The notes beneath the pieces are model-generated. The model was not told the origin of the DNA. It saw only the letters and a list, made by a program, of their open reading frames with translations, and made no database searches. A stretch of 64,000 nucleotides of DNA from Candidatus Dormiibacterota bacterium (GTDB taxonomy: Bacteria > Chloroflexota > Dormibacteria > CF-121): contig DATEHI010000152.1 in the NCBI GenBank assembly GCA_035279665.1, forward strand, positions 1,350 to 65,349. Reading direction: 5' to 3'. The stretch's first letter is position 1; every line of letters starts with the position of its first letter. The position numbers and the translations under genes were made by a program. Shown piece after piece: positions 2,664 through 30,453 of the stretch.

Positions 2664-3915
2664 GCGGCCCGCTCGAGCAGCTGTTCGCGCTGGCGAGCAT
2701 TGAGAGTCAAACTCGCCGCACGCTCGAACTCCACGCGGGCTTCATCGAAGCGTGCGAGCTTGGCGAGGAGGTCACCCCGCACGCTCGGCAAATACTGATA
2801 GCTCGCCAGCGACGGCTCGGCGGTGAGCGCATCGACGAGCCCGAGCCCCGCCGCCGGGCCGAATGCCATGCCATGGGCGACCGCCCGATTCAACTCCACC
2901 ACAGGTGATGGCGCGAGGTGGGCGAGGGCGTCGTAGAGCGCCGCGATCCGCGCCCAGTCCGTTTCGGCCGCCGTCCGAGCCCGGGCGTGGCAGGCGGCAA
3001 TCGCGGCCTGTAGCGCGTAGGGTCCGAGCCCACCGCCGAGTTGCTCGGCACGCTCCAGCGAGACGACTCCACGGCGGATCAACAGTTGATCCCAGCGTCC
3101 ACGGTCCTGGTCGAGCAAGAGAACCGGGTCTCCGCTTCGACCGATTCGGGCGCGCGTGCGTGAAGCCTGGATCTCCATCAGCGCGACGAGACCGTGCACC
3201 TCCGGCTCCCTGGGGGTGAGCTCGGCGAGGATCCGGCCGAGACGAAGCGCGTCCTCGCAGAGCGCGGGGCGCAGCCAATCATCACCCGCCGTGGCCGCGT
3301 AGCCCTCATTGAAGATGAGGTAGATCACCTCGAGGACCGATGACAGTCTGGCCGCACGCGCGGCTCCCTGCGGCACCCCGAAAGGAACTCGTGCTTCGTG
3401 AAGCGCCCGCTTGGCCCGCACGATTCGTTGGGCGATGGCTGGTTCAGCAACGAGAAACGCTCGCGCGATCTCTTCGGTCGTCAGGCCGCCGAGGAGGCGA
3501 AGGGTCAGCGCGACCCTCGCCTCGGTCGAGAGCACCGGGTGACAGGCAGTGAAGATGAGACGAAGGAGGTCGTCCCCGAAGTCATCGTCAGTGACGGCCT
3601 CGAATTCCCGCTCGGATATCTCATGCTCGACCCCCAGCAATTCGTGTCCCATTTCCTCGTACTTCAGCTCGAGGCGTTTCCTTCGGCGAAGGAGATCGAT
3701 CGCGCGATGTTTTGCGGTGCCCATGAGCCAGGCGCCCGGTCTGTCGGGAATCCCCGATCGCGGCCATTGTTCGAGCGCCGCAACCAACGCGTCCTGCGCG
3801 AGCTCCTCCGCGAGGCCGACTTCGTGCACGATGCGCGCGAGGCCGGCAATCAGCCGGGCAGACTCGATCCTCCAGACAGCGTCAATCGCGCGACGCGTGT
3901 CGGTCGCCGTCGTCT
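2630..3915 (-). CDS. ECF-type sigma factor with C-terminal TPR-like domain (COG4941 family); start codon unresolved
   Basis: WRIESARLIAGLARIVHEVGLAEELAQDALVAALEQW...AKHRAIDLLRRR are sigma region 2 motifs, followed by a long helical C-terminal domain. No ATG/GTG/TTG exists between the upstream YciI stop (3916) and the conserved N-terminus. The first in-frame ATG (4099) lies deep inside the upstream gene. Confidence 0.6.
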
Positions 3916-4341
3916 CTACTGCCTGGCGGCCGCCTGCGAACGCAGGCGCTCCTCCCGCTTCCTGGCCTCTGGCGTCAGGTTGGCACCGAAGTCGTCGGCC
4001 TCGTAGACCTGACGAATCTCGACCTCGCCCTCCTCGCCGGTGGGGTTGGGGATGCGCCTGACCCATTCGAGCGCCTCGTCCAACGATTTCACCTGCCACA
4101 GCCAGAAGCCGGCGATCAACTCCTTCGTCTCGGCGAATGGCCCATCGACGACCGTCCGCTTGGTGCCGGCGAACTTGACGCGCGCGCCTTTCGAGCTCGG
4201 CTGGAGCCCCTCGCCGGCGAGCATCACGCCGGCCTTCATCAGCTCCTCATTGAACTGGCCCATCTCGGTCAGGAGCTGCTCACTGGGAAGCACGCCCGCC
4301 TCCGACTGCTGGCTGGCCTTGATCAGGATCATGAATCGCAT
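3916..4341 (-). CDS. YciI-family protein (DGPF motif), the usual partner of COG4941 sigma factors
   Basis: The 141-aa product contains DGPFAETKE. It lies immediately upstream and co-directional with the sigma gene, and its stop abuts or overlaps the sigma N-terminus. Confidence 0.75.
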   Translation of the reverse strand: MRFMILIKASQQSEAGVLPSEQLLTEMGQFNEELMKAGVMLAGEGLQPSSKGARVKFAGTKRTVVDGPFAETKELIAGFWLWQVKSLDEALEWVRRIPNPTGEEGEVEIRQVYEADDFGANLTPEARKREERLRSQAAARQ

Positions 4342-4492
4342 CGTTGTGTCCTCCTTGGTGATGGTCTCTACCTGGACGTCGAATGGCGACCAGCCAAATC
4401 GACAACGGCCTGTGGATGATGCCCATTGATGACGGTCGCCCCGCCTGCTAGTCTATGCGGGTTTCCGGCAGGCACCAGGGAGGGGACAGGCC

Positions 4493-7400
4493 GTGATTCG
4501 ACAGCGTGCATCGCGACTTCGCAGGTTGAGTCTCACGGTCGGCCTGGCGCTCGCACTCCTGCCGGTCGGGCTTTCGCCAATCAGTGGATGGGCATCCCAC
4601 GCGGCATCGGACGGGCCGGGAAATCTGTCGCACTTCGACCTGGCGCGGAAGGATTGCCTGGGCACCGCCCGGAACACCACGTCGAAAGTCTGGTTCACGG
4701 TCGCCAACGGTGTCCTGAGCGACGTCTATTTCCCGACCGCGGACAACACGAATGTCGAAACCCTCCAACTCGTCGTGACGGACGGGCGCACCTTCACGGA
4801 CCTGCAGACGCGCGACATGACCTACACGGTGAGGGCGCCGGATGCGCGGTCACTCGAATGCCAGGTGACCAGCACGGCAAAAAGCGGACGGTACCGGATC
4901 ACGACCGACTATCTCACCGATCCCGCGCGGAACACGCTGCTGATGCGCATCGCGTTCGAGCCGCAGGAGGGCGACAACGCGAACTATCACGTCTATCTTC
5001 GGTACGACCCGAGCATCAATGGCAATGGCGGGGGCGGTTCGGGCAACGGGGGTGGTGACTCCGGCCTCATCGATACCTCGACTGGGCACGCAGTTCCCGT
5101 CGCCTTCGACACCACGACCACGAGCCAGGCGGTCAACCGCACTTACGCGGTCCCGGTCTTCAGCGCGCTCGATGCCTCGCGGCCCTTCCGCCAGGTTAGC
5201 AACGGCTTCAAGGGCGCCGCCAGCGATGGTCTCACCCAGCTTGATGCGTCTCACGCGATGACCTCCACCAACGACACCGCCAGCAACGGCAACCTCGTCC
5301 AGACCGCGCAGCTCGACTTCGCCGAGGAGGGTGAGCTGACTCTGGCGCTCGGCTTCGGCACCACCCAGGCGCAGGCTGTCGCCGCCGCCGCCGGCTCGCT
5401 GCACGGCGAATTCGATGACGTGCGGGGCTCCTTCCAGGCCGGCTGGCACGCGTACGACGCCTCGCTGATCAAGCCGCCAGCCCACGTGGCCGGCGTGACG
5501 CGAAGCCAGTGGCGCCAGCTGGTGAACGGCTACTACTTGAGCGCCAACGTCGTCAAAGCCAGCGAGGACAAGACGTTTCCCGGCGCGATCGTAGCCAGCC
5601 TCGCGTCGCCCTGGGGCCAGGCGATCTCGGCCGGCGACCCCAACAATCTCTACTTCGGCTCGTACCGGGAGGTCTTTGCGCGCGATCTCTACGAGGCCTG
5701 GACCGCACTCATGGTGGATGGCGACGTGCAGACCGCGCGTGCTGCGGCGCGGTTCCTCCTGGAGCGGCAGCAGCTCCCGGATGGATCCATGCCGCGCAAC
5801 AGCCTGCTCAACGGCAAGGTGGCGCCCGACTCCTTCAACACCCAGCTGGACGAAGTGAGCTACCCGATCGTGATGGCCTACCAGCTCGGCATGACCGACT
5901 CCGTCCTGTATCAGAACCACATCCGATCGGCGATCGATTTCTTGATCGCGCACGGCCCGTCCTTCGGTCCTGAGCGCTGGGAAGAGCAGGGCGGCTTCTC
6001 ACCCTCCACGATCGCGGCCGAAGTCGCCGGGCTCGTGGCAGGCGCGACGATTGCCGAGGCCAACGGCGATACCGCAACGGCGAATGTGGCGCGCGCCGTC
6101 GCCGACGACTGGCAGCGGAGCCTTCCCGGCTGGGCCGTCACGACCAACGGGCCGCTCGCGAGCCATCCGTACTACATCCGTCTTTCGAAGTCGGGCGATC
6201 CCAACGCGGCCATCTCGTACAACGTCGGCAATGGCGGCCCGACGCTGGACCAGCGCGCGATCATCGACCAGGGGTTCCTGGAGATGGTGCGCCTCGGCCT
6301 GACGCCGGCCTCGGATCCGACCATCGCGCAGTCGCTCCCGGTCGTCGACGCCACCATCAAGGCCGACACGTCGACCGGCGCCGGCTTCCATCGCTACAAC
6401 GGTGACGGCTATGGCGACGGTGCCGGCGATGGGCACCCATGGGCGCCGTCGGGCAAAGGCACCGGCCATCTGTGGCCGGCGCTGGCGGGTGAGCGGGGCG
6501 AGTACGAGCTCGCGACCGGCAATGCCGCCGCCGGATGGCAACGTCTGATCGCGATGCTGGGCGGCGCCTCGGGTCCCGGGTTGATCCCGGAGCAGGTCTG
6601 GGAGCTGCCCGACCTCGCCGCCTCACCGTTCGGGACGGATCCGACCGTCGCCTCGATCGGGTTCCACAACGGCGGGCCGGCGGGGTCGGCATCGCCGCTG
6701 ACATGGTCGGACGCGCAGTACGTTCGCCTGATGCGCGATCTGAGTGCCGGCAAGGTGCTCGAGCAGCCGGCCATTGTGGCCAACCGGTATGTCGCGCATC
6801 AGCAGGGACAGACCAGCCTGACCGTCACCCAGCCGGCCGACAACAGCGCGGTCGCCGGGTCCCCGGTCACGGTAGCCGGCACGTCGCTGCCGGGCAACAC
6901 GATCTCCGTCGCGGCGACGAACACCGATAACAACAGCCAGACCACGACGGGGACGACCGCGGTTCAGCCCGACGGCAGCTTCAGCCTGTTGGTACCGGTC
7001 GGCGGAGGCACGACGGTGGTGAACATCGTGGCCGTGAGCCCCACCGGCGCGACCGCGCACGTGCAGCGGAGCATCGTGTTTGACTTCACGCCGGGAACGG
7101 TCCTCCTGGACGTCACCGACCCGAGTGGCGACGACAACGGGCCCGGGAACTATGCGTATCCGACGGCCGGGGACTTCCATGCGGGCGCGTTCGACATCCA
7201 GGAGTTCCGCGTCATCGAGAGTCCGGACGGCGCGACCACCACCTTCAAGTTGAAGGTGCGCGACCTGTCCCCAACGTTTGGCAGCCCGCTCGGCGCGCAG
7301 CTGGTCGACGTCTACGTGCACGACCCGGCCGCCGCGGCGCCGAACACGTCGACGGCGGCGTCGTTCCCTCAGCGCAATTACGCCATCGCGGCCCCCGGGG

Positions 7401-21968: not shown

Positions 21969-22481
21969 TCAGGTCGGCCAGATGTCCAGCTCGTCGAGTC
22001 GATTCATTCCGAGCGTCGCGGAGATCTCGCCACTGTGGTAAGCGTCGTGCGTGATAAGGCGCATGAGCACGGCCTGGCGAGTGTGGATCTGGATCGCGCC
22101 GCGGCTCTCTCGAGGGAATTTCTCCTGAAGCATCTCGGGCGTCCATCGATCGAGACAATCCTGAATGACGCTCCAGGATGATTCGAGTGCCGAGACGAGC
22201 TCGCTCGCCCGCCGGGGATGGGTCGGGTCGTCTTCCCAGCCCTCTCCGGTGGGACTGACAAAACGATTGCGTTCGGCTCCGGGTTCCTTGAAGATATGGC
22301 ACAGCCAGTACACGCGGGCCCCGGCGGTGTGCGCGGTGATGGCCCAGATCGGCCAGAGGTCAGGCGACGGCCGCAGCTGGAGTTGCTCGAGAGAAAGGGC
22401 GGCGATCCTCTGGACCAGGCGTTCCTGAACGAATTGCCATCCGCCATAGAACGGCGCGATGTTCGGTGCGTTCCTACTCAC
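21969..22481 (-). CDS. DinB/YfiT-like (DinB_2) metal-dependent four-helix-bundle protein
   Basis: The His-containing motifs WAITAHTAG and THDAYHSGEI are typical of the DinB_2 family. Confidence 0.6.
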   Translation of the reverse strand: MSRNAPNIAPFYGGWQFVQERLVQRIAALSLEQLQLRPSPDLWPIWAITAHTAGARVYWLCHIFKEPGAERNRFVSPTGEGWEDDPTHPRRASELVSALESSWSVIQDCLDRWTPEMLQEKFPRESRGAIQIHTRQAVLMRLITHDAYHSGEISATLGMNRLDELDIWPT

Positions 22482-22489
22482 CAGGTAGG

Positions 22490-23215
22490 TTATTTAACAC
22501 CGACCAGCGAGACCAGCGCCTGCGCATCGCTGACCGCATGTCCTTCCATGTCGTTATTGAAATACACGAAGACATCGAGCCCACCGCGGCGCCAGTCGCC
22601 GACGCGATTGGCCCACGGCTCCAGCGCGCTGCGGCCATAAGCGAGGCCTCGAGGGGGCAGATGCATCCTTATATATGTGAAGTCGCTGGTGATCTCCAGC
22701 GACTTGGGCATCTTCGGGTGGTCTGGGATGCAGAGAGCGATCCGGTGAGCGCGTAGCAGGTCGAAGACCGCCGGCACGAGCCATGAGTCGTGGCGGAACT
22801 CGAGCGTGAAGCGCACGCCCGCCGGCAGCATGGCAACGAAGTGCCCTAAACGCTGCAGGTCGAGGTGGAAGTTAGCCTGCAGCTGGAAGAGGATGGGTCC
22901 CAGCTTGTCGCCCAGCCCGACCGCCGCATCGACGACCAGGTCGATCGACGTCTTTTCGACCGCGAGTCGCTTGATGTGAGTGACGTAGCGGCTGCCTTTG
23001 ACCGCAAACAGGAAGCCTGGTGGCGCCTGCTCTCTCCAGGCCTCGAATTGCTCCCGCGGCGGCTGTCGATAGAAGGAGTTGTTGAGCTCGACCGTGTTGA
23101 AGTGCTGCGCATAGAAGGCGAAGTGCTCTCGCGCCGGCATCTTGTCCGGATAGAAGAGCTTGCGCCAGTGTGGATAGGACCAGCCCGAACAGCCGATTCG
23201 GATATCGCCCGCCAT
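22490..23215 (-). CDS. DUF72 (YecE-like) family protein
   Basis: The N-terminus IRIGCSGWSYPHWRKLFYP is the DUF72 hallmark. Confidence 0.75.
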   Translation of the reverse strand: MAGDIRIGCSGWSYPHWRKLFYPDKMPAREHFAFYAQHFNTVELNNSFYRQPPREQFEAWREQAPPGFLFAVKGSRYVTHIKRLAVEKTSIDLVVDAAVGLGDKLGPILFQLQANFHLDLQRLGHFVAMLPAGVRFTLEFRHDSWLVPAVFDLLRAHRIALCIPDHPKMPKSLEITSDFTYIRMHLPPRGLAYGRSALEPWANRVGDWRRGGLDVFVYFNNDMEGHAVSDAQALVSLVGVK

Positions 23216-23245
23216 CGATGACCATTCTGCAAAAGCGCGCTGAGG

Positions 23246-24532
23246 TCAGGCTGCGGGGGCAGTATCGGGCGCGCGCGCCGAGTAGTAATCGTAGACAGGT
23301 GGGATCGCCAGCAGCCGTCCGTCATCCGCGCGAGCCAATTTCCATCCGCCTTCGTGCACCATCCAATGATGGCGGTGGCACAGCAGGATTAAATTGGATA
23401 GGTCGGTGACGCCGCCCTGAACCCAGTGAACGAGGTGGTGCGCGGCACTCCGTGACGCCGTGCGTTCGCACCCGGGCCACTGGCAGTGCTGGTCGCGAGC
23501 ATTCAGCGCGCGGCGGGTCGCGCCGGAGACGACTCGCGCCGCTCGGCCGACGTCGACCACGACCGAGTCCGGGCCGAACACGACGCGCGCAATGTTGCCA
23601 TCGCATGCCAGTCGCTGCACGGTTGTTGACGAGATCGGCGTCGAGAACTCCATATCCGCCGCCGGCGATCCGGGCAATCCTTGCAGCGTTTCGAGTGTGG
23701 TCGTGACCTGGAGATGCGGGCGCTGGCTCGCGTGCTGAGGCACCAGCCCGGCATCGAGCGAATGAAGCGACAGCTCGACGAGCGCATCGCCCTGGCGCCG
23801 CTCGAGGCAGCGTTCGTCACCCTGGCCCATCGGTTGCGCCAGCGGCTCGAGAGCAGTGCGGAAGGCAGCGCCGCCAACGGGGTCCAGCTGTCCACTGATG
23901 TGGAGCGACCCGTCTTCCCACACGCTCAGCTTCAGGCCTCGCTCCTCGACAGCAACGCGATGATCTCGCTCCACACCTTCCGGGTCGAGCGCATGGCGCA
24001 GGCGTTCGCAGTAATGCCAGAGCCGTCCCGCTGACGATTCCCGGGCGCGTTCGAGGACGTCATCTTCGTGGAACACGGACTCCGGGGCGGTATTCGAAAG
24101 CGCGGTCGCCGTGCGGGCAATAACCGATAGGTGGGCGAAACCGATCTCACCACCGACCATCGCCTGCGCGCATTTCACAATCCGGGGTAGCTGCTCGCCG
24201 ACATTGATGCAGTCATAGGCCGCGCCGCTCTTCATCTTGCAGTTATGCCGGATCCACTCGCCGGCGGTTGGGGCATCGAGCCGGTCCGCTGTTTCCTCCT
24301 CACGAAACTGTGCCGACAGGCGCGCCGCTTCCTTCGAGAAGGCGAGACTGAGACGATCGCGCACGTAGCTGAGCCGCTTCAGCCTGCCGGAGATATCGCC
24401 CTGGGGCAGGTCGCAAACAATCAAGTCCAAGAACTCATCGACGTCGCGACGGAGCGGCACGTCAAGCGAGTCGCGGCTCGGAGTAGCGACGATGCTCATC
24501 AGGTCTTGCAAAAGAGCGGCGACGTCTTCCAC
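23246..24532 (-). CDS. DUF222 plus HNH endonuclease-domain protein (actinobacterial 13E12-repeat-type)
   Basis: The C-terminal HNH motif is CQWPGCERTASRSAAHHLVHWVQGG...LILLCHRHHWMVHEGGW, and the N-terminal region is DUF222. Confidence 0.75.
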   Translation of the reverse strand: MEDVAALLQDLMSIVATPSRDSLDVPLRRDVDEFLDLIVCDLPQGDISGRLKRLSYVRDRLSLAFSKEAARLSAQFREEETADRLDAPTAGEWIRHNCKMKSGAAYDCINVGEQLPRIVKCAQAMVGGEIGFAHLSVIARTATALSNTAPESVFHEDDVLERARESSAGRLWHYCERLRHALDPEGVERDHRVAVEERGLKLSVWEDGSLHISGQLDPVGGAAFRTALEPLAQPMGQGDERCLERRQGDALVELSLHSLDAGLVPQHASQRPHLQVTTTLETLQGLPGSPAADMEFSTPISSTTVQRLACDGNIARVVFGPDSVVVDVGRAARVVSGATRRALNARDQHCQWPGCERTASRSAAHHLVHWVQGGVTDLSNLILLCHRHHWMVHEGGWKLARADDGRLLAIPPVYDYYSARAPDTAPAA

Positions 24533-24708
24533 ATCCGAAGCTCCAGCTGGCGCCGCGCACGACGGAGCCGGCCGACCCTGGCAAGCTCGTCGTCAATCCG
24601 CTGGTTGGTACGGCGGATGTGCTCGTCAAGGGCTACGGCCAAATCCTCGAACCGGTAGCTGGGCCTCGCCGACACTCCCCCCACCCCCATCTTCACGAGC
24701 ACATTATA

Positions 24709-24722
24709 CGAACATATGTTCG
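24709..24722. promoter_or_regulatory. LexA (Cheo-type SOS) box CGAACATATGTTCG, perfect palindrome
   Basis: The sequence lies within the 18-bp perfect palindrome TACGAACATATGTTCGTA. It overlaps a TATGTT -10-like hexamer and sits 52 nt upstream of the small RAM-domain gene. Confidence 0.7.
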
Positions 24723-24773
24723 TAGTGTCAAGAGGCTTTGAGGTCTGCCAAACGAGGTGAGAGAATCCCCTTC

Positions 24774-25061
24774 GTGGTCACTGCCGTCGTCCTCATCGAG
24801 GCGGAAAGGTCTGCGATCGCCAAGCTCGGGCCTGCGCTCGCCGACGTGCCAGGTGTCGCCGAGGCGTACTCCGTCACCGGAGAATTCGATTTCGTGGTGA
24901 TCGTCAGGGTCAAGAATCACGAAGAGATCGCCGACGTCGTGACCTCACGGCTGTCGCAGGTGCCGGGGATCGTCAAGACCCACACGCACGTCGCCTTCAA
25001 GGTCTACTCGAAGCACGACCTCGAGGCGATGTTCAGCGTCGGACTGCAGGAAGCGCGCTAG
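24774..25061 (+). CDS. Stand-alone Lrp/AsnC C-terminal (RAM) domain protein (95 aa)
   Basis: ...AYSVTGEFDFVVIVRVKNHEEIADVV...GIVKTHTHVAFKVY is an AsnC_trans_reg fold. GTG at 24774 has a GAGGTGAGAG RBS 10 nt upstream; TTG at 24738 is the alternative. Confidence 0.6.
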   Translation: MVTAVVLIEAERSAIAKLGPALADVPGVAEAYSVTGEFDFVVIVRVKNHEEIADVVTSRLSQVPGIVKTHTHVAFKVYSKHDLEAMFSVGLQEAR

Positions 25062-25084
25062 CCGGACGCGTGGCCGTCGCCGGC

Positions 25085-25113
25085 TTGACGAGCGAACATT
25101 TGTTCGATAAGAT
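25085..25113 (+). promoter_or_regulatory. Sigma-A-type promoter (TTGACG -17- TAAGAT) with an embedded LexA box CGAACATTTGTTCG (25093..25106) upstream of imuA'
   Basis: The GAAC-N4-GTTC core (GAACATTTGTTC) is a perfect Gram-positive/actinobacterial SOS box. It lies 96 nt upstream of the imuA' start. Confidence 0.7.
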
Positions 25114-25201
25114 CTAGCCAGCCTCAGCGTCTGGTCTTGCGTCCCCGGGGAGGCCTGATGTCACCGCGGTTCTCGCCATCTCTCCTTAGGGACGTGCTCA
25201 A

Positions 25202-25879
25202 ATGCCAGATCGGCTGCAACAAGCCATTACGGTGCTCCAGACCCGCTTCGGGAGCGCCGCGCCGCGCCCGTCGGCACCTCCGTGTCCGGCACGATCCTCC
25301 GGGATCCCCGAGCTCGATGCGTTGACTGGGATCGGCGGGTGGCCGGTGGGCCGGCTGAGCTTGCTGGCGGGACCGAGGGGTTCGGGCAAACGAACACTGG
25401 CGCAGCGCAGCGTCGCCGCCGCCAGCCGGGAGGGACCGGTTGCCTACGTCGACATTCCTGGCCGTCTCGATCCAGAATTTCTGAGCCACTTCGATGCGCG
25501 GCTCGACCACCTGCTGGTCGTGCGACCGAAATCCATCAAAGAAGCGATGGCCAGTGTACGGGTGCTGGCGCGTGCCGGCGTCGACTACATCGCCATCGAT
25601 CTGCCGCGCACGCGATCCTCGGGGCTCGATGCCGAGCTGCCGCACTTGTTGCACCGCGCCGCTGAAGCCGAGTGCACGCTCTTGCTGATCCATGACGCTG
25701 ACGCCGAGGACGCGATCCGCTATTACGCCAGCCTGATCCTGAGCTTCCAGCGCAGCGCCTGGGTCTTTCGCCGCGACGGCGATCTGGAAGGCTTGCAGGT
25801 CGATGCCGCCGTCGTCAAGAACCGGCTGGCGCCACCGGGCCGCACCGCCCGATGGATCGTTCCATACCCGATCCCATGA
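25202..25879 (+). CDS. imuA: ImuA' (RecA-fold SulA-like protein of the imuA'-imuB-dnaE2 mutasome)
   Basis: The Walker A-like motif LLAGPRGSGKRTLA and its position as first gene of the cassette behind a LexA box support the call. Confidence 0.7.
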   Translation: MPDRLQQAITVLQTRFGSAAPRPSAPPCPARSSGIPELDALTGIGGWPVGRLSLLAGPRGSGKRTLAQRSVAAASREGPVAYVDIPGRLDPEFLSHFDARLDHLLVVRPKSIKEAMASVRVLARAGVDYIAIDLPRTRSSGLDAELPHLLHRAAEAECTLLLIHDADAEDAIRYYASLILSFQRSAWVFRRDGDLEGLQVDAAVVKNRLAPPGRTARWIVPYPIP

Positions 25880-27066
25880 TCTGCTGCGTTCGCACGCCCC
25901 ACCCATCGCTGATCGCCGCCTGGCTGACGGCGCCGGCGTTGCGCGGCCGTCTACTGATCCTCGGCGGGTTCGCGCACGAGCGCGCTTCGGTGACGACGGC
26001 ATCGGCCGAAGCGCGGGCGCAGGGCGTGGTCGAGGGGATGAGCCTCAACCAGGCTCAACAATTTGCGCCCGACGCCATCTTTCAACCGGTCGACGAGGAG
26101 GCCACAGCCAGGGTCCGCCAGTCCCTGCTCCTGATCCTGCACCACTTCACCCCCGACGTGGCTGCCGGCGAGGATCCTGGCTGTGCCTTCCTCCGTCTCG
26201 ACCGGCTGGCCTTGCGCTGGCCCGACCGTTCGCAATTGCTGGCCGCCATCGGCCGTGCGATCGAGGCCGCCATCCGCGTCAGGCCGGCGATTGGCGTGGC
26301 GTCGTCGATGTTCGTCAGTGCGGTTGCGGCTGCCCATGCCACGGCTGCGGCCCCGGTGATCGTCGAGCAAGAGAACACGCGAGCCTTTCTCGCTCGCTAC
26401 CCGATCGATGTCCTGCCGCTCGATGACGACCTGCGTGAATACCTCGAGCTCCTCGGGATCAAGACGATCGGCCGTCTGCAGGCGATCTCTCGACCCGCGT
26501 TTCGCCGCCAGTTCGGCCAGAAAGCCCTCGTCGTCTATGACCTGGCGTTCGGCGATGACCGGCGTCGCTTACGGCCCTGGCGGCCGGCCGTCCGGATCGA
26601 GGAAAGCGAGCCACTCGAGCCGCCGGTCGACAACACCCAGGCGCTACAATTCATCGCCCGCGCGCTGGCCGAGCGGGTGAGCGCCTCACTGCTTTCGCAA
26701 GGGCTTGGGACACGCGCGGTCCGTATCACCCTCAACCAGGAGTCGGCACCGGCGCTGGTGATCGAGGCGCGCTTTGCCTACCCGATGACGACCGCGGGCG
26801 AGCTGTTCGATGGGATTCGCCCGCGATTGCTGCGCGCGTCGATCATCGCGCCGCTGGAACGGATCACGCTGCGCGCCGGCCGGCTGGAAGCGGCCTATGT
26901 TCGCCAACCCGGGCTGCTGATCCGACGCGATCCCTTCACGGAAGGGATCGCCGATGCGGTCGCGCGCCTACAGGAGGAGTACGGGCCGTCCCTGGTCCAG
27001 CGTGCCGAGGTCCGCAGCGATGCTGCGCCACTCCCGGACCACCGGATCCTGTGGAAACCCGCGTGA
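25852..27066 (+). CDS. imuB: ImuB (catalytically inactive Y-family polymerase-like protein), N-terminal 404 aa
   Basis: Y-family palm/fingers-like region. It overlaps the imuA' end by 28 nt. Its C-terminal domain appears to continue in a different frame (next feature). Confidence 0.7.
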   Translation: MDRSIPDPMICCVRTPHPSLIAAWLTAPALRGRLLILGGFAHERASVTTASAEARAQGVVEGMSLNQAQQFAPDAIFQPVDEEATARVRQSLLLILHHFTPDVAAGEDPGCAFLRLDRLALRWPDRSQLLAAIGRAIEAAIRVRPAIGVASSMFVSAVAAAHATAAAPVIVEQENTRAFLARYPIDVLPLDDDLREYLELLGIKTIGRLQAISRPAFRRQFGQKALVVYDLAFGDDRRRLRPWRPAVRIEESEPLEPPVDNTQALQFIARALAERVSASLLSQGLGTRAVRITLNQESAPALVIEARFAYPMTTAGELFDGIRPRLLRASIIAPLERITLRAGRLEAAYVRQPGLLIRRDPFTEGIADAVARLQEEYGPSLVQRAEVRSDAAPLPDHRILWKPA

Positions 27067-27317
27067 CGGAACTGCTGGCGCCGGCACGGCCGGTCCGGGT
27101 GCGTGTCGATGCGGATGGCGTGCCGACGCACCTCGAGTCGGCGGCCGGGTGGCAGCCGGTGACCCGTGTGCTCAACCGCTGGCGAATCGACTGCGACTGG
27201 TGGCGCAGCCCGGTCTCGCGCGAGTACTGGCGGCTGCTGATCGACGATGACCTCGCGCTCGAGTGCTATTGCAACCGGGCCAGTGCGGAATGGTTTGTCG
27301 AGCGCGTCTATGACTAG
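27051..27317 (+). CDS. imuB: ImuB C-terminal domain segment (88 aa) in the -1 frame relative to imuB. This is a frameshift or a split gene
   Basis: VTELLAPARPVRVRVDADGVPTHLE...RWRIDCDWWRSPVSREYWRLLIDDDLALECY...FVERVYD carries the WW / WR motifs of the ImuB C-terminal domain. Its GTG at 27051 overlaps the imuB stop region. Confidence 0.55.
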   Translation: METRVTELLAPARPVRVRVDADGVPTHLESAAGWQPVTRVLNRWRIDCDWWRSPVSREYWRLLIDDDLALECYCNRASAEWFVERVYD

Positions 27318-30300
27318 CGCCTACGCCGAGTTGCACTGCCACTCCAACTATTCCTTCCTTGAGGGCGCATCGCATCCTGACGAGCTGCTGGCGCGCGCCC
27401 GCGACCTCGAGATGCCGGCGCTCGCCATCACCGACCGCAACGGCTTCTACGGCGCGGTCAAGTTCTTCGGCGCGGCGCAGCGAGCAGGCATCCAGCCGAT
27501 CATCGGCACCGAGCTGACGATCGACGACGGGACCACGCCGCCGAAAGACCGGGTGGATTACGACCGCTGGGGGGATCGGTTGCTGCTGCTCGTTGAAGAC
27601 AAGCTCGGTTACACGAGCCTCTGCCGCTTGATCAGCATGGCGCAGATGCCCAACGCGAAAGGCATGGCACGCTTAGCTCCAGACAAACTTGCAGGGTTGA
27701 GCAACCATCTGATCGCGCTGGTCGCCGATCCCAAAGAGCGGCTGCCCTTCTACCAGGAGATCTTCGGCCGCGAACGGGTCTTCATCGAGCTGCACGACCA
27801 CCTGGCTCCGGACGACCGCTCGCGCAACCAGCGGCTGCTCGACCTGGCCGGGCAGTATGCGGCGCCGCTGGTCATCACCAACGAGGTCTTTTATGCGACG
27901 CCCGACCGGCACAGGCTCCACGACGTCCTCACTGCGATCCGTCATCGCACCACGCTCGACGAGGCGCAGCGCTATCTGCATCCGAACGCCGAGCACTACC
28001 TCAAGTCGGGGGTCGAGCTTCGCCAGGTCTTCGGCCGGTACCCGCGGAAGGTCGTCGACGACGGCCTGGCGCACGCCGCGGAAATTGCGGGGCGCTGCCT
28101 CTTCAGCTTCGACCTGGTGAGCGCGCGCTTTCCCGGCTTTCCGGTCCCGGCGGGGGAGACGCCGTACTCCTTCCTGTACCGGCTCTGCCAGGATGCCGTC
28201 CGCGAGAAATATCGTCCGGTCACTTCCGAGGTGGCGGCCCGTCTGCAGAAAGAGCTCGACGTCATCAACAAGACGGGCTTCAGCGAGTTCTTCTTGATCA
28301 ACTGGGACCTGATGCGGTTCGCGCGCTTACGCGGGATCCCGGGCCAGGGCCGCGGTTCGGCGGCCGACAGCATCGTCGCCTACCTGCTCGGGATCACGCG
28401 GGTCGATCCGATCGAGCACAACCTGCTCTTCGAGCGCTTCCTGCACGAAGAGATGACGACGACACCCGACATCGACATCGACTTCTCCACCGCGCACCGC
28501 GAGCAGGTGATCCAGTACGTCTACGAAAAGTACGGCCCGGAGCGCACCGGGATGGTCTGCAACGTCGTGACCTACCGCCAGCGGTCCGCGATCCGCGAAG
28601 TCGGCAAGGCGCTGGGATTCAAGGAGGAGACGATTGATCACCTGGCGAAGTCGGCATCAGCCTGGCACCCGGAAAGCCCGGAGACGATCGCGCAGGCGGC
28701 CGGCTATCCGACGGCAAACGCCGCGAAGCCCTGGCAGCAATTGTTCGACCTTGCCACCCAGATCCTCGATTTCCCGCGTCATCTCTCGATCCATGTCGGC
28801 GGGATGCTGGTCACCGGCGAGCCGCTGATCGACATCGTGCCGGTCGAGCGCGCCACCATGCCGGGCCGCATGGTGGTGCAGTTCAACAAGGACGACGTCG
28901 AGGAGCTGGGCTTGATCAAGATGGACATGCTCGGCCTGCGCATGCTCTCGGTGGTCGCCGAAGCGCTCGACCTGATCGAGGCCGACACCGGCGTACGCCC
29001 CGACCTCGACGCGCTCGACCTGAAAGACCCGGCCGTCTACGAACTCTGCACGCAGGCCGACACGATCGGGGTGTTCCAGATCGAGAGCCGGGCGCAGATG
29101 CAAACGCTGCCGCGCTCGCGACCCGAGACCTTCAACGATCTCGTCGTGGAGGTCGCGATCATCCGCCCTGGCCCGATCCAGGGCGATGCGGTGCATCCGT
29201 ACCTCAGGCGCAAGCAGGGCAGAGAGCCGGTGATGTACATCCACCCACGCTTGAAACCGATCCTCGAGGAGACGCTCGGCGTCGTCCTCTACCAGGAGCA
29301 GATCCTGAAGATCTCGATGGAATGCGCCAGCTTCTCGAGCGCCGAAGCCGACCGGTTCCGGCGGGCGATGAGCAGCCATCGGTCGCACGACTTGATGGCG
29401 GCGATCCGCGAGCGCTTCCTCAGCGGTTGCGCTCACAACGAGATCCCGCAACCGATTGCCGAGGAGATCTTCACCAAGCTGTCCGCCTTCGCCGAGTTCG
29501 GCTTCACAAAGTCACACGCGGCCGCCTTCGCCCGAACCTGTTACGAGACCGCCTGGCTCAAGCTGCATCACGCGCCCGCACTCTACGCTGGGCTGCTCAA
29601 CCACCAGCCGATGGGCTTCTATCACCCGCACGTGCTCGTCGAGGACGCCAAGCACCACGACGTCAAGATCCTGGCGGTCGACATCAACAAGAGCTATGTG
29701 CGCTGCACCGTCGAAGGTGGCGCATTGCGACTCGGCTTCAACTACGTGCATGGCGTCGGCGACAAGGCCCTCGAGGTCCTCGAGGAGGCGCAGCTCAAAG
29801 GTCCGGTCACCTCGCTCGAAGAGTTCTGCCGCCGCATTCGCCTGACGACGCAATCTCGGAACGGCCTGACCCGGGCGCAGGTGCAGAACCTGGTGCTGGC
29901 CGGCGCCTTCGACGCGCTGGAACCGAACCGGCGAGAGGCGGTCTGGCGCTTCAACGAGCACGCCGACGATTGGCAGCACACGCCGATGCTGGCCGAGCCG
30001 TCAGAGTCAGTGAGCCTGGCACCGATGACCCACCGCGAGCGGGTCGCGACCGACTACCGGCTGCTCTCGCTAACGACGACCGACCACCTGATTCATTTCT
30101 ACCGGCCGCAGTTCGATGCCTTGCACGTGATCGACTCGAAGACGATCCGATCGAGTGTTCGAGACGGAGCGAAGGTCCGGGTTGGCGGCCTGGTGATCAC
30201 GCGGCAATCGCCATCGACCGGCAAGGAGTTCAAGTTCTTCACGCTGGCTGATGAGTTCGGCCACGTCGACGTCATCCTGCGGCCGCCGATCTATCAACGG

Positions 30301-30453
30301 TACCGGCAGGTGGCGAACCTGGAGCCGATCCTGATCATGGACGGGCGGCTGCAGAAACAGGACGGCGTGCTGAGCGTGCTCGTCGACCACGTCGAGGCCG
30401 CGCCCTCGCTGCCCGAGGAGGACGTGTTCCCTACGTCACGGAACTACCGATAG
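27310..30453 (+). CDS. dnaE2: Error-prone DNA polymerase DnaE2 (ImuC)
   Basis: The PHP domain start is MTSAYAELHCHSNYSFLEGAS, with polIII-alpha core motifs and a C-terminal OB fold. An ATG at 27310 is chosen over the 27247 track start. Confidence 0.85.
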   Translation: MTSAYAELHCHSNYSFLEGASHPDELLARARDLEMPALAITDRNGFYGAVKFFGAAQRAGIQPIIGTELTIDDGTTPPKDRVDYDRWGDRLLLLVEDKLGYTSLCRLISMAQMPNAKGMARLAPDKLAGLSNHLIALVADPKERLPFYQEIFGRERVFIELHDHLAPDDRSRNQRLLDLAGQYAAPLVITNEVFYATPDRHRLHDVLTAIRHRTTLDEAQRYLHPNAEHYLKSGVELRQVFGRYPRKVVDDGLAHAAEIAGRCLFSFDLVSARFPGFPVPAGETPYSFLYRLCQDAVREKYRPVTSEVAARLQKELDVINKTGFSEFFLINWDLMRFARLRGIPGQGRGSAADSIVAYLLGITRVDPIEHNLLFERFLHEEMTTTPDIDIDFSTAHREQVIQYVYEKYGPERTGMVCNVVTYRQRSAIREVGKALGFKEETIDHLAKSASAWHPESPETIAQAAGYPTANAAKPWQQLFDLATQILDFPRHLSIHVGGMLVTGEPLIDIVPVERATMPGRMVVQFNKDDVEELGLIKMDMLGLRMLSVVAEALDLIEADTGVRPDLDALDLKDPAVYELCTQADTIGVFQIESRAQMQTLPRSRPETFNDLVVEVAIIRPGPIQGDAVHPYLRRKQGREPVMYIHPRLKPILEETLGVVLYQEQILKISMECASFSSAEADRFRRAMSSHRSHDLMAAIRERFLSGCAHNEIPQPIAEEIFTKLSAFAEFGFTKSHAAAFARTCYETAWLKLHHAPALYAGLLNHQPMGFYHPHVLVEDAKHHDVKILAVDINKSYVRCTVEGGALRLGFNYVHGVGDKALEVLEEAQLKGPVTSLEEFCRRIRLTTQSRNGLTRAQVQNLVLAGAFDALEPNRREAVWRFNEHADDWQHTPMLAEPSESVSLAPMTHRERVATDYRLLSLTTTDHLIHFYRPQFDALHVIDSKTIRSSVRDGAKVRVGGLVITRQSPSTGKEFKFFTLADEFGHVDVILRPPIYQRYRQVANLEPILIMDGRLQKQDGVLSVLVDHVEAAPSLPEEDVFPTSRNYR

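Follow-up and report, generated by a model that had tools for sequence, protein, structure and literature searches.

We identified two LexA-type SOS boxes in the window (the whole stretch of 64,000 nucleotides analysed here, from a Dormibacterota-like lineage represented by metagenome-assembled genomes, MAGs). Sequence comparisons indicate that the first of these, box 1, is a real and conserved LexA-type operator, and its target is very likely the divergent operon formed by a small ORF and a DUF222-HNH endonuclease gene. The gene on the other side of box 1, which encodes a stand-alone RAM (Lrp/AsnC ligand-binding) protein, is most likely only a neighbour and would not be an SOS gene. An earlier note on this DNA had put forward RAM as an SOS function co-induced with imuA'-imuB-dnaE2, with regulation of the divergent DUF222-HNH gene as its fallback. 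The promoter that holds box 1 points away from RAM, contrary to the headline claim, and promoter direction together with the co-occurrence of box and DUF222 across loci favours the fallback.

Table 1. Features around the two SOS boxes, with positions numbered from the first letter of the window.
Feature	Position	Strand	Details
DinB_2-family gene	21969-22481	-	Pfam; downstream of DUF222-HNH, same strand
DUF72 gene	22490-23215	-	Pfam; downstream of DUF222-HNH, same strand
DUF222-HNH endonuclease gene, 13E12-type	23246-24499	-	417 aa; listed ORF 23246-24532, ATG 24499 the likelier start
Small ORF, probably leaderless	24499-24696	-	65 aa; start GTG 24696, stop TGA 24501-24499
Sigma-70-type promoter TTGACA-17-TATAAT	24703-24731	-	TTGACA 24731-24726, TATAAT 24708-24703; box 1 in spacer; promoter scan 12/12
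LexA-type SOS box 1	24709-24722	.	CGAACATATGTTCG; core centred in 18-bp palindrome TACGAACATATGTTCGTA, 24707-24724
Putative extended -10 of RAM, TG-a-GAGAAT	24758-24766	+	7 nt before GTG 24774; possible -35 TTGAGG 24738-24743
Stand-alone RAM gene	24774-25061	+	95 aa; start GTG 24774; PF01037 9.7e-18; no HTH
imuA' promoter-like element TTGACG-17-TAAGAT	25085-25113	+	promoter scan; box 2 in spacer; begins 24 bp past RAM stop codon
SOS box 2	25093-25106		CGAACATTTGTTCG
imuA'-like gene	25202-25879	+	Pfam RecA
imuB-like gene	25852-27066	+	Pfam IMS
dnaE2	27247-30453	+	Pfam DNA_pol3_alpha; NF004225 error-prone DNA polymerase, 1091 bits (cut-off 939)

The exact motif CGAAC-N4-GTTCG occurs only at box 1 and box 2 when both strands of the 64-kb window are searched (2 observed versus 0.15 expected; 1 of 100 shuffles reached 2). 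The 18-bp perfect palindrome described in the earlier note, with its core, reads at the positions given there, and the two boxes, placed about 380 bp apart, are separated by a measured 384 bp. Box 1 is identical to the imuA' box at 13 of 14 positions. Compared with the mycobacterial consensus, a 16-mer, box 1 differs at two positions, both of them outermost bases, and box 2 at one. The 18-mer TATACGAACATATGTTCG also lies just upstream of lexA (L147, L105 and L183) and of recA (L199) in metagenome contigs of unassigned taxon, as recognized with B. subtilis LexA and RecA queries, and its placement before these genes calibrates the box as a LexA-type operator. A tblastn search of the 64-kb window with a B. 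subtilis LexA sequence gave no match for lexA, so that the regulator is identified here by the likeness of the motif to the imuA' box and by the lexA- and recA-proximal sites elsewhere. From these we infer LexA binding and damage induction at box 1.

A promoter scan of positions 24400-25300 returned two sites, one per strand, each carrying an SOS box in its spacer. Box 1 and box 2 occupy the same spacer position in these two oppositely directed promoters. The minus-strand promoter, which reads away from RAM and towards the small ORF and DUF222-HNH, is the single match to TTGACA-N17-TATAAT with at most one mismatch in the 64 kb, and none of 100 shuffles produced such a match. Both of its hexamers are kept across the aligned loci. 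Box 1 fills the spacer of this 12/12 promoter, whereas it is clear of the putative core promoter of RAM. Eight aligned loci share the block of about 60 bp that contains the box and the two hexamers, with little or no change; the run ATT-TACGAACATATGTTCG is the same in all of them, and the flanks diverge. The box is invariant even though the DUF222 proteins of the compared loci are only 52-86% identical. A plus-strand element noted earlier, TTCACG (24692-24697)-17-TATGTT (24715-24720), is present in the sequence, but it agrees with the consensus at only 8 of 12 positions and is not among the sites that the promoter scan returned. Read on the minus strand, TTCACG is CGTGAA, which contains the start codon of the small ORF; this hexamer becomes TTCATG in L002, L003 and L051, where that start codon is ATG. 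The TATGTT of the element is part of box 1 itself.

The first gene downstream of the minus-strand promoter is predicted to be the small ORF. Its GTG begins at the seventh base after TATAAT, a geometry that suggests a leaderless mRNA. The stop codon of the small ORF overlaps ATG 24499 (TGATG), an in-frame codon of the DUF222-HNH ORF, and the two genes are probably translationally coupled. The start codon of the small ORF alternates between GTG and ATG at the same position (window, L001-L003 and L051; ATG in L002, L003 and L051), and an N-terminal MKMGVGG and a C-terminal W-x-T-x-P-x-F motif are kept around a variable middle. In L204 (GCA_035544955.1), which encodes an identical RAM protein, the annotation has a 66-aa gene and a 417-aa DUF222 gene that share 4 nt. 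A Pfam search with three variants of the small ORF gave no family. The small ORF of L003 and L051 is a truncated duplicate of a DUF222 N-terminus; unlike that of L051, the window's small ORF has no significant similarity to the N-terminus of its own DUF222 protein (E 0.34).

The DUF222-HNH gene, present as the one DUF222 copy in the 64-kb window, matches PF02720 (3.6e-35, 122 bits) and PF01844 HNH (3.3e-05, 24.4 bits), both above cut-offs. The 177 nt previously given between the box and this gene refer to GTG 24532; the likelier start is ATG 24499, and the small ORF fills the gap. A read-through check found no terminator-like or promoter-like site between DUF222 and the DUF72 and DinB_2 genes. 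A -10-like CAGAAT stands 8 nt before the DUF72 ATG. The region 23000-25400 gave no Rfam match at E<=1.

On the other side of box 1, the 95-aa protein consists of a RAM domain without HTH, as the earlier note had it, given the PF01037 match and a start that is kept in homologues. A database search returned 2811 RAM homologues, the closest named ones belonging to Candidatus Dormibacteraeota and Solirubrobacterales MAGs. In an alignment of 23 homologues the start, M/V-VTA(I/V)VLIEAER, is kept, which sets the length at 95 aa. The best solved relative is 2djw of Thermus thermophilus, itself a stand-alone protein of 92 aa (E 9.5e-19 over residues 1-90). Longer RAM gene calls of 107-167 aa were considered as possible carriers of a hidden HTH and rejected, as they are intergenic read-throughs in which the box is translated as LYEHMFVV or IIRTYVRSVK.

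RAM appears to have transcription signals of its own. The sequence GGTGAGAGAAT (TG-n-GAGAAT) is found upstream of RAM in the window, L001, L003, L005, L006 and L007, its end 7 nt from the start codon, and L004 has the variant TG-a-GACAAT at this site. The presence of TGnGAGAAT in L005 and L007 as well shows that the RAM signal is kept with or without the box. TATACT precedes the RAM start codon by 6 nt in L009 and L010 and by 10 nt in L008, none of these with a Shine-Dalgarno sequence, and an analogous arrangement of GAGAAT, 6 nt and ATG is found at DUF72 in L010. The -10-like signal of RAM lies 39 nt downstream of box 1, and the putative -35 begins 15 bp beyond the box. We infer that RAM has a separate promoter with an extended -10, probably leaderless and back-to-back with the DUF222 promoter.

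To compare gene neighbourhoods we used the RAM alignment to scan a set of genomes in which each GTDB species has a single representative; this gave 80 loci chosen regardless of the box. Eleven of the 80 belong to the window's clade, with RAM proteins 80-93% identical; the compared loci are closely related, some probably from one species, and the counts are not independent events. DUF222 lies upstream of RAM in L001, L002, L003, L006 and L051, with the box 61-63 nt before RAM. L007 has DUF222 about 1 kb upstream of RAM and the box beside DUF222, 607 bp from RAM. All six loci with DUF222 upstream of RAM therefore carry the box, whereas none of the three in which DUF72 abuts RAM does so. These three (L008, L009 and L010) have no DUF222, leave about 55-66 bp between DUF72 and RAM, and keep RAM-imuA'-imuB-dnaE2. 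L004 has the box on a contig that ends on the DUF222 side, and L005 has no box within the 222 bp of sequence present upstream of RAM. The other 69 RAM loci are more distant (60-71% identical), most of them from Solirubrobacterales and some from Limnocylindria; we detected no box with at most one mismatch in the 400 bp upstream of any of these genes, and none adjoins imuA'. The absence of a box at RAM in L005, L008, L009, L010 and the 69 distant homologues argues against RAM as the target of box 1. The RAM neighbourhood in Solirubrobacterales includes rhomboid, MBL-fold (metallo-beta-lactamase) and RNR-small-like genes, and it offers no SOS link and no functional clue.

The genes for ImuA'-like, ImuB-like and DnaE2 proteins do come after RAM in the window, as previously noted. 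The recurrence of RAM genes before imuA', which had been proposed as a synteny check, is confined to one narrow clade, and the mutasome cassette is absent from L007 and from all Solirubrobacterales RAM loci. The imuA' box is found in nine of nine related genome loci having imuA'. A convergent minus-strand gene of 390 aa separates RAM from imuA' in L001, and a gap of similar size occurs in L003, L004, L006 and several metagenome loci, so that RAM would not be co-transcribed with the cassette there. On this evidence we place RAM outside the mutasome operon, and we predict that box 2 controls imuA'-imuB-dnaE2 independently of box 1.

It is conceivable, although we consider it improbable, that control is bidirectional, so that the LexA operator also represses RAM, through TTCACG-17-TATGTT or through interference between back-to-back promoters, and RAM is damage-induced too. 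Only 51 nt lie between the end of box 1 and the RAM start codon, the box overlaps the 8/12 element, and a RAM mRNA with a leader would need a promoter overlapping the operator. RAM also adjoins imuA'-imuB-dnaE2 across the clade, and M. tuberculosis LexA sites between divergent genes exist (PMC3381160). The box-to-RAM distance of 61-63 nt in most loci with both is explained equally well by shared ancestry. However, the plus-strand element falls under the scan threshold and its -35, being the antisense of the small-ORF start, is degraded in L002, L003 and L051; the -10-like element kept 7 nt ahead of the RAM start codon points to a separate promoter; RAM orthologues are boxless where DUF222 is absent (L008-L010), as they are in L005 and the 69 distant homologues; and RAM is parted from imuA' by the convergent gene in L001 and by the similar gap in L003, L004 and L006. 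If LexA regulated RAM at all, this would have come about as a side effect of the insertion of DUF222.

The assignment of box 1 to the small ORF and DUF222-HNH was also approached from the box, by scanning metagenome contigs with the 18-mer TATACGAACATATGTTCG as the sole criterion, which gave 120 loci. The window-type block (ATTATACGAACATATGTTCG...GTCAA) is present in 23 of these, 12 of which have DUF222 on one side of the block and RAM on the other. A DUF222 profile match was found in 28 of the 120 loci, and in nearly all of these the box is positioned at the DUF222 reading frame or shortly before it; the exceptions are L091 and L149, which are IS-disrupted, and L101, where the box is deep inside an open frame. 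Four divergent DUF222 copies (L138, L152, L190 and L196) were confirmed by Pfam; by tblastn, L138, L190 and L196 are 28-33% identical and L152 went undetected. DUF222 comes with the block in every Dormibacterota-type locus seen, as it does in these four distant copies.

The block occurs without an adjacent RAM gene in L007, L102, L140, L173 and L175. In L102, L140 and L175, DUF222 is kept and the RAM side is occupied by what reads as IS or integrase fragments, RAM being 1143 nt away in L175. L173 has the block directly before a 71%-identical DUF222 gene, with no RAM within 11.6 kb, and the block is located behind the 3' end of a minus-strand ORF that by eye is glycosyltransferase-like. A minus-strand DUF5946 gene (5413-5958) stands between box and RAM in L007, with the box behind its 3' end. 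The geometry of L007 and L173 leaves no plus-strand gene to regulate, and only the DUF222 side can be served. In three further loci (L091, L149 and L136) the DUF222 gene or small ORF is broken and is parted from the block by an insertion of about 1.8-3 kb. The ORF of this insertion reads by eye as an IS1595-type transposase.

In a different reading, the palindrome resembles an SOS box by coincidence and belongs to a mobile DUF222-HNH element, either as its terminal or recombination sequence or as the operator of a regulator that the element encodes, for example the product of the small ORF. The block does move with the DUF222 cassette and occurs at different genomic sites, and the small ORF, with no Pfam family, has no assigned function. 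We nevertheless judge this reading very unlikely, given the 13/14 identity to the box before imuA', a canonical LexA target (PMC3381160), the identical 18-mer before lexA and recA in unrelated contigs, and the arrangement of one copy per cassette, located in a promoter spacer and lacking an inverted counterpart at the opposite end. A functionless chance palindrome can practically be dismissed: by chance the window should contain 0.15 exact matches, and the box stays unchanged among loci with DUF222 proteins 52-86% identical and is embedded in the sole perfect consensus promoter of the 64 kb.

Taking the small ORF and DUF222-HNH as the operon served by box 1, we propose that in undamaged cells LexA would occupy the spacer of the minus-strand promoter and keep RNA polymerase from using it. 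Upon DNA damage, RecA-stimulated self-cleavage of LexA would free this very strong promoter, which would then transcribe the leaderless small ORF followed by the coupled DUF222-HNH gene. The unit of promoter, operator, small ORF and DUF222-HNH may be regarded as a cassette set between two older neighbours, DUF72 and RAM. DUF222 is polymorphic, present or absent, at the site between DUF72 and RAM, and copies are found in other contexts (L007 and L173). As DUF72 abuts RAM without DUF222 or box in L008-L010, DUF72 appears to be the ancestral neighbour of RAM. The RAM gene thus probably predates the cassette, and its nearness to the box would be a product of where the cassette sits.

We further speculate, with rather low confidence, that the cassette is a self-contained, SOS-triggered mobile or recombinogenic unit that carries its own LexA promoter, nests into the 5' ends of resident copies, and may pull RAM (by promoter coupling) and DUF72 and DinB_2 (by read-through) partly into the SOS regulon. 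If true, this would provide a mechanistic handle on 13E12-type repeats outside mycobacteria.

The RAM protein itself resembles the SRAM proteins of T. thermophilus (2djw), P. horikoshii (DM1, 2e1a/2z4p) and S. tokodaii (STS042), which likewise contain nothing but a RAM domain and are about 75-95 aa long. Their physiological role is unclear; amino acids or metabolites are the presumed ligands, and hetero-oligomers with full-length Lrp proteins are considered possible (PMC2995911). Nothing ties the SRAM proteins to DNA damage, and our literature searches found no paper linking AsnC/RAM proteins with the LexA regulon and imuA. The analysis most likely removes a false lead, the idea that the SOS response includes a stand-alone RAM protein as a function not known before. 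With respect to the known LexA-regulated imuA'-imuB-dnaE2 cassette, box 2 and the three genes are conserved in all related loci having the cassette, whereas RAM is not a component: the promoter of imuA' intervenes, and RAM is absent nearby outside the clade.

Box 1 has the exact core arms of the Gram-positive/actinobacterial (Cheo-type) box, TCGAAC-N4-GTTCGA or CGAAC-N4-GTTCG, and like it overlaps a promoter, as expected of a repressor operator; it differs from the Cheo-type box in being flanked by A...T (ACGAAC...GTTCGT) rather than T...A. The literature searches returned no paper linking LexA with Dormibacterota, and the window offers a first glimpse of SOS operators and putative leaderless consensus promoters in a Dormibacterota-like lineage.

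The closest known counterpart of the proposed operon is found in M. tuberculosis, where DUF222-HNH genes of this kind are known to respond to DNA damage and where LexA control of 13E12 (DUF222) genes is established and includes the REP13E12 genes Rv0515, Rv0336, Rv1702c, Rv2100, Rv1588c and Rv0095c (PMC3381160). The 13E12 family corresponds to Pfam DUF222 (PMC13157036), and its M. tuberculosis genes are reported to resemble insertion elements and to vary in location (PMC3381160; PMC13157036). Both systems combine DUF222 (with HNH), a box of the CGAAC-N4-GTTCG class in the promoter, and a boxed imuA'/imuB/dnaE2. Unlike M. tuberculosis, the window belongs to a Dormibacterota-like MAG lineage and not to the Actinomycetota, contains a single copy, and has a perfect consensus and putatively leaderless promoter with a coupled small ORF whose middle is hypervariable. 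The comparisons made here would extend LexA control of DUF222-HNH from M. tuberculosis to an uncultured soil Dormibacterota-like lineage and to distant metagenomic copies, which suggests that damage-inducibility may be an ancient and intrinsic property of the DUF222-HNH nuclease family.

Among 120 metagenome loci (L081-L200) selected solely for the 18-mer TATACGAACATATGTTCG, the palindrome holding SOS box 1, 28 have a DUF222 match adjoining it; others hold lexA, recA, imuB or dnaE2. The Pfam-confirmed DUF222 copies of L138, L190 and L196 are merely 28-33% identical to the window copy. Given this recurrence, divergent copies included, DUF222-HNH looks like a recurrent SOS target far outside the mycobacteria.

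Comparison across loci indicates that the small ORF preceding DUF222-HNH keeps both of its ends, an N-terminal MKMGVGG and a C-terminal W-x-T-x-P-x-F motif, around a hypervariable middle of at least five types. In two RAM-centred genome loci, L051 and L003, this middle duplicates the N-terminus of DUF222 (55% identity, E 3e-14 in L051), and in metagenome contig L173 DUF222 directly follows the promoter/operator block, with no small ORF. Together, these arrangements suggest that resident DUF222 genes have undergone nested insertion or recombination at their 5' ends. The metagenome contigs L091, L149 and L136 carry insertions that contain passenger ORFs and one ORF that, judged by eye, looks like an IS1595-type transposase. 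In L091 and L149 the DUF222 gene is split across two reading frames. An orphaned promoter, predicted to be LexA-controlled, remains adjoining RAM.

Features identified in the window and compared loci
Feature	Locus	Position	Strand	Remarks
Insertions, ~1.8-3 kb, between promoter/operator block and DUF222	L091; L149; L136	L091 ~2960-5650		
Small ORF upstream of DUF222-HNH	Window	24499-24696	-	Compared with L001, L002, L003, L051, L007, L102, L173
DUF72 and DinB_2-family genes after DUF222-HNH, same strand	Window	21969-23245	-	
-10-like hexamers ahead of start codons	Window; also L009, L010	24761-24766; 23224-23229 (DUF72)		
390-aa ORF between RAM and imuA'	L001	6285-7457	-	No match in Pfam search; reads as membrane-anchored
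84-aa ORF	Window	~26996-27250	+	Overlaps imuB end and dnaE2 start

Downstream, the gaps along the DUF222-HNH, DUF72 and DinB_2 run are 30 and 8 bp, and no terminator-like site was found between these genes. It is possible that DUF72 and DinB_2 are reached by read-through from the promoter predicted to be LexA-controlled, but a -10-like CAGAAT is present 8 nt upstream of the DUF72 ATG. Such hexamers (GAGAAT, CAGAAT, TATACT or TATAAT) repeatedly lie 6-8 nt upstream of the start codon, at RAM, DUF72 and the small ORF, and no Shine-Dalgarno sequence is found at these starts. This combination is a hint that the lineage commonly uses leaderless mRNAs.

Two further ORFs accompany the mutasome cassette. 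The 390-aa ORF of genome locus L001 may be a divergent SOS-controlled gene, as its ATG falls within the imuA' LexA box; RAM-imuA' gaps of similar size occur in L003, L004, L006, L116, L125, L188 and L198. Each of the six related contigs has a gene call for the 84-aa ORF at the imuB/dnaE2 junction, and the ORF had no match in a Pfam search. It could be an uncharacterised fourth component of the imuA'-imuB-dnaE2 cassette.
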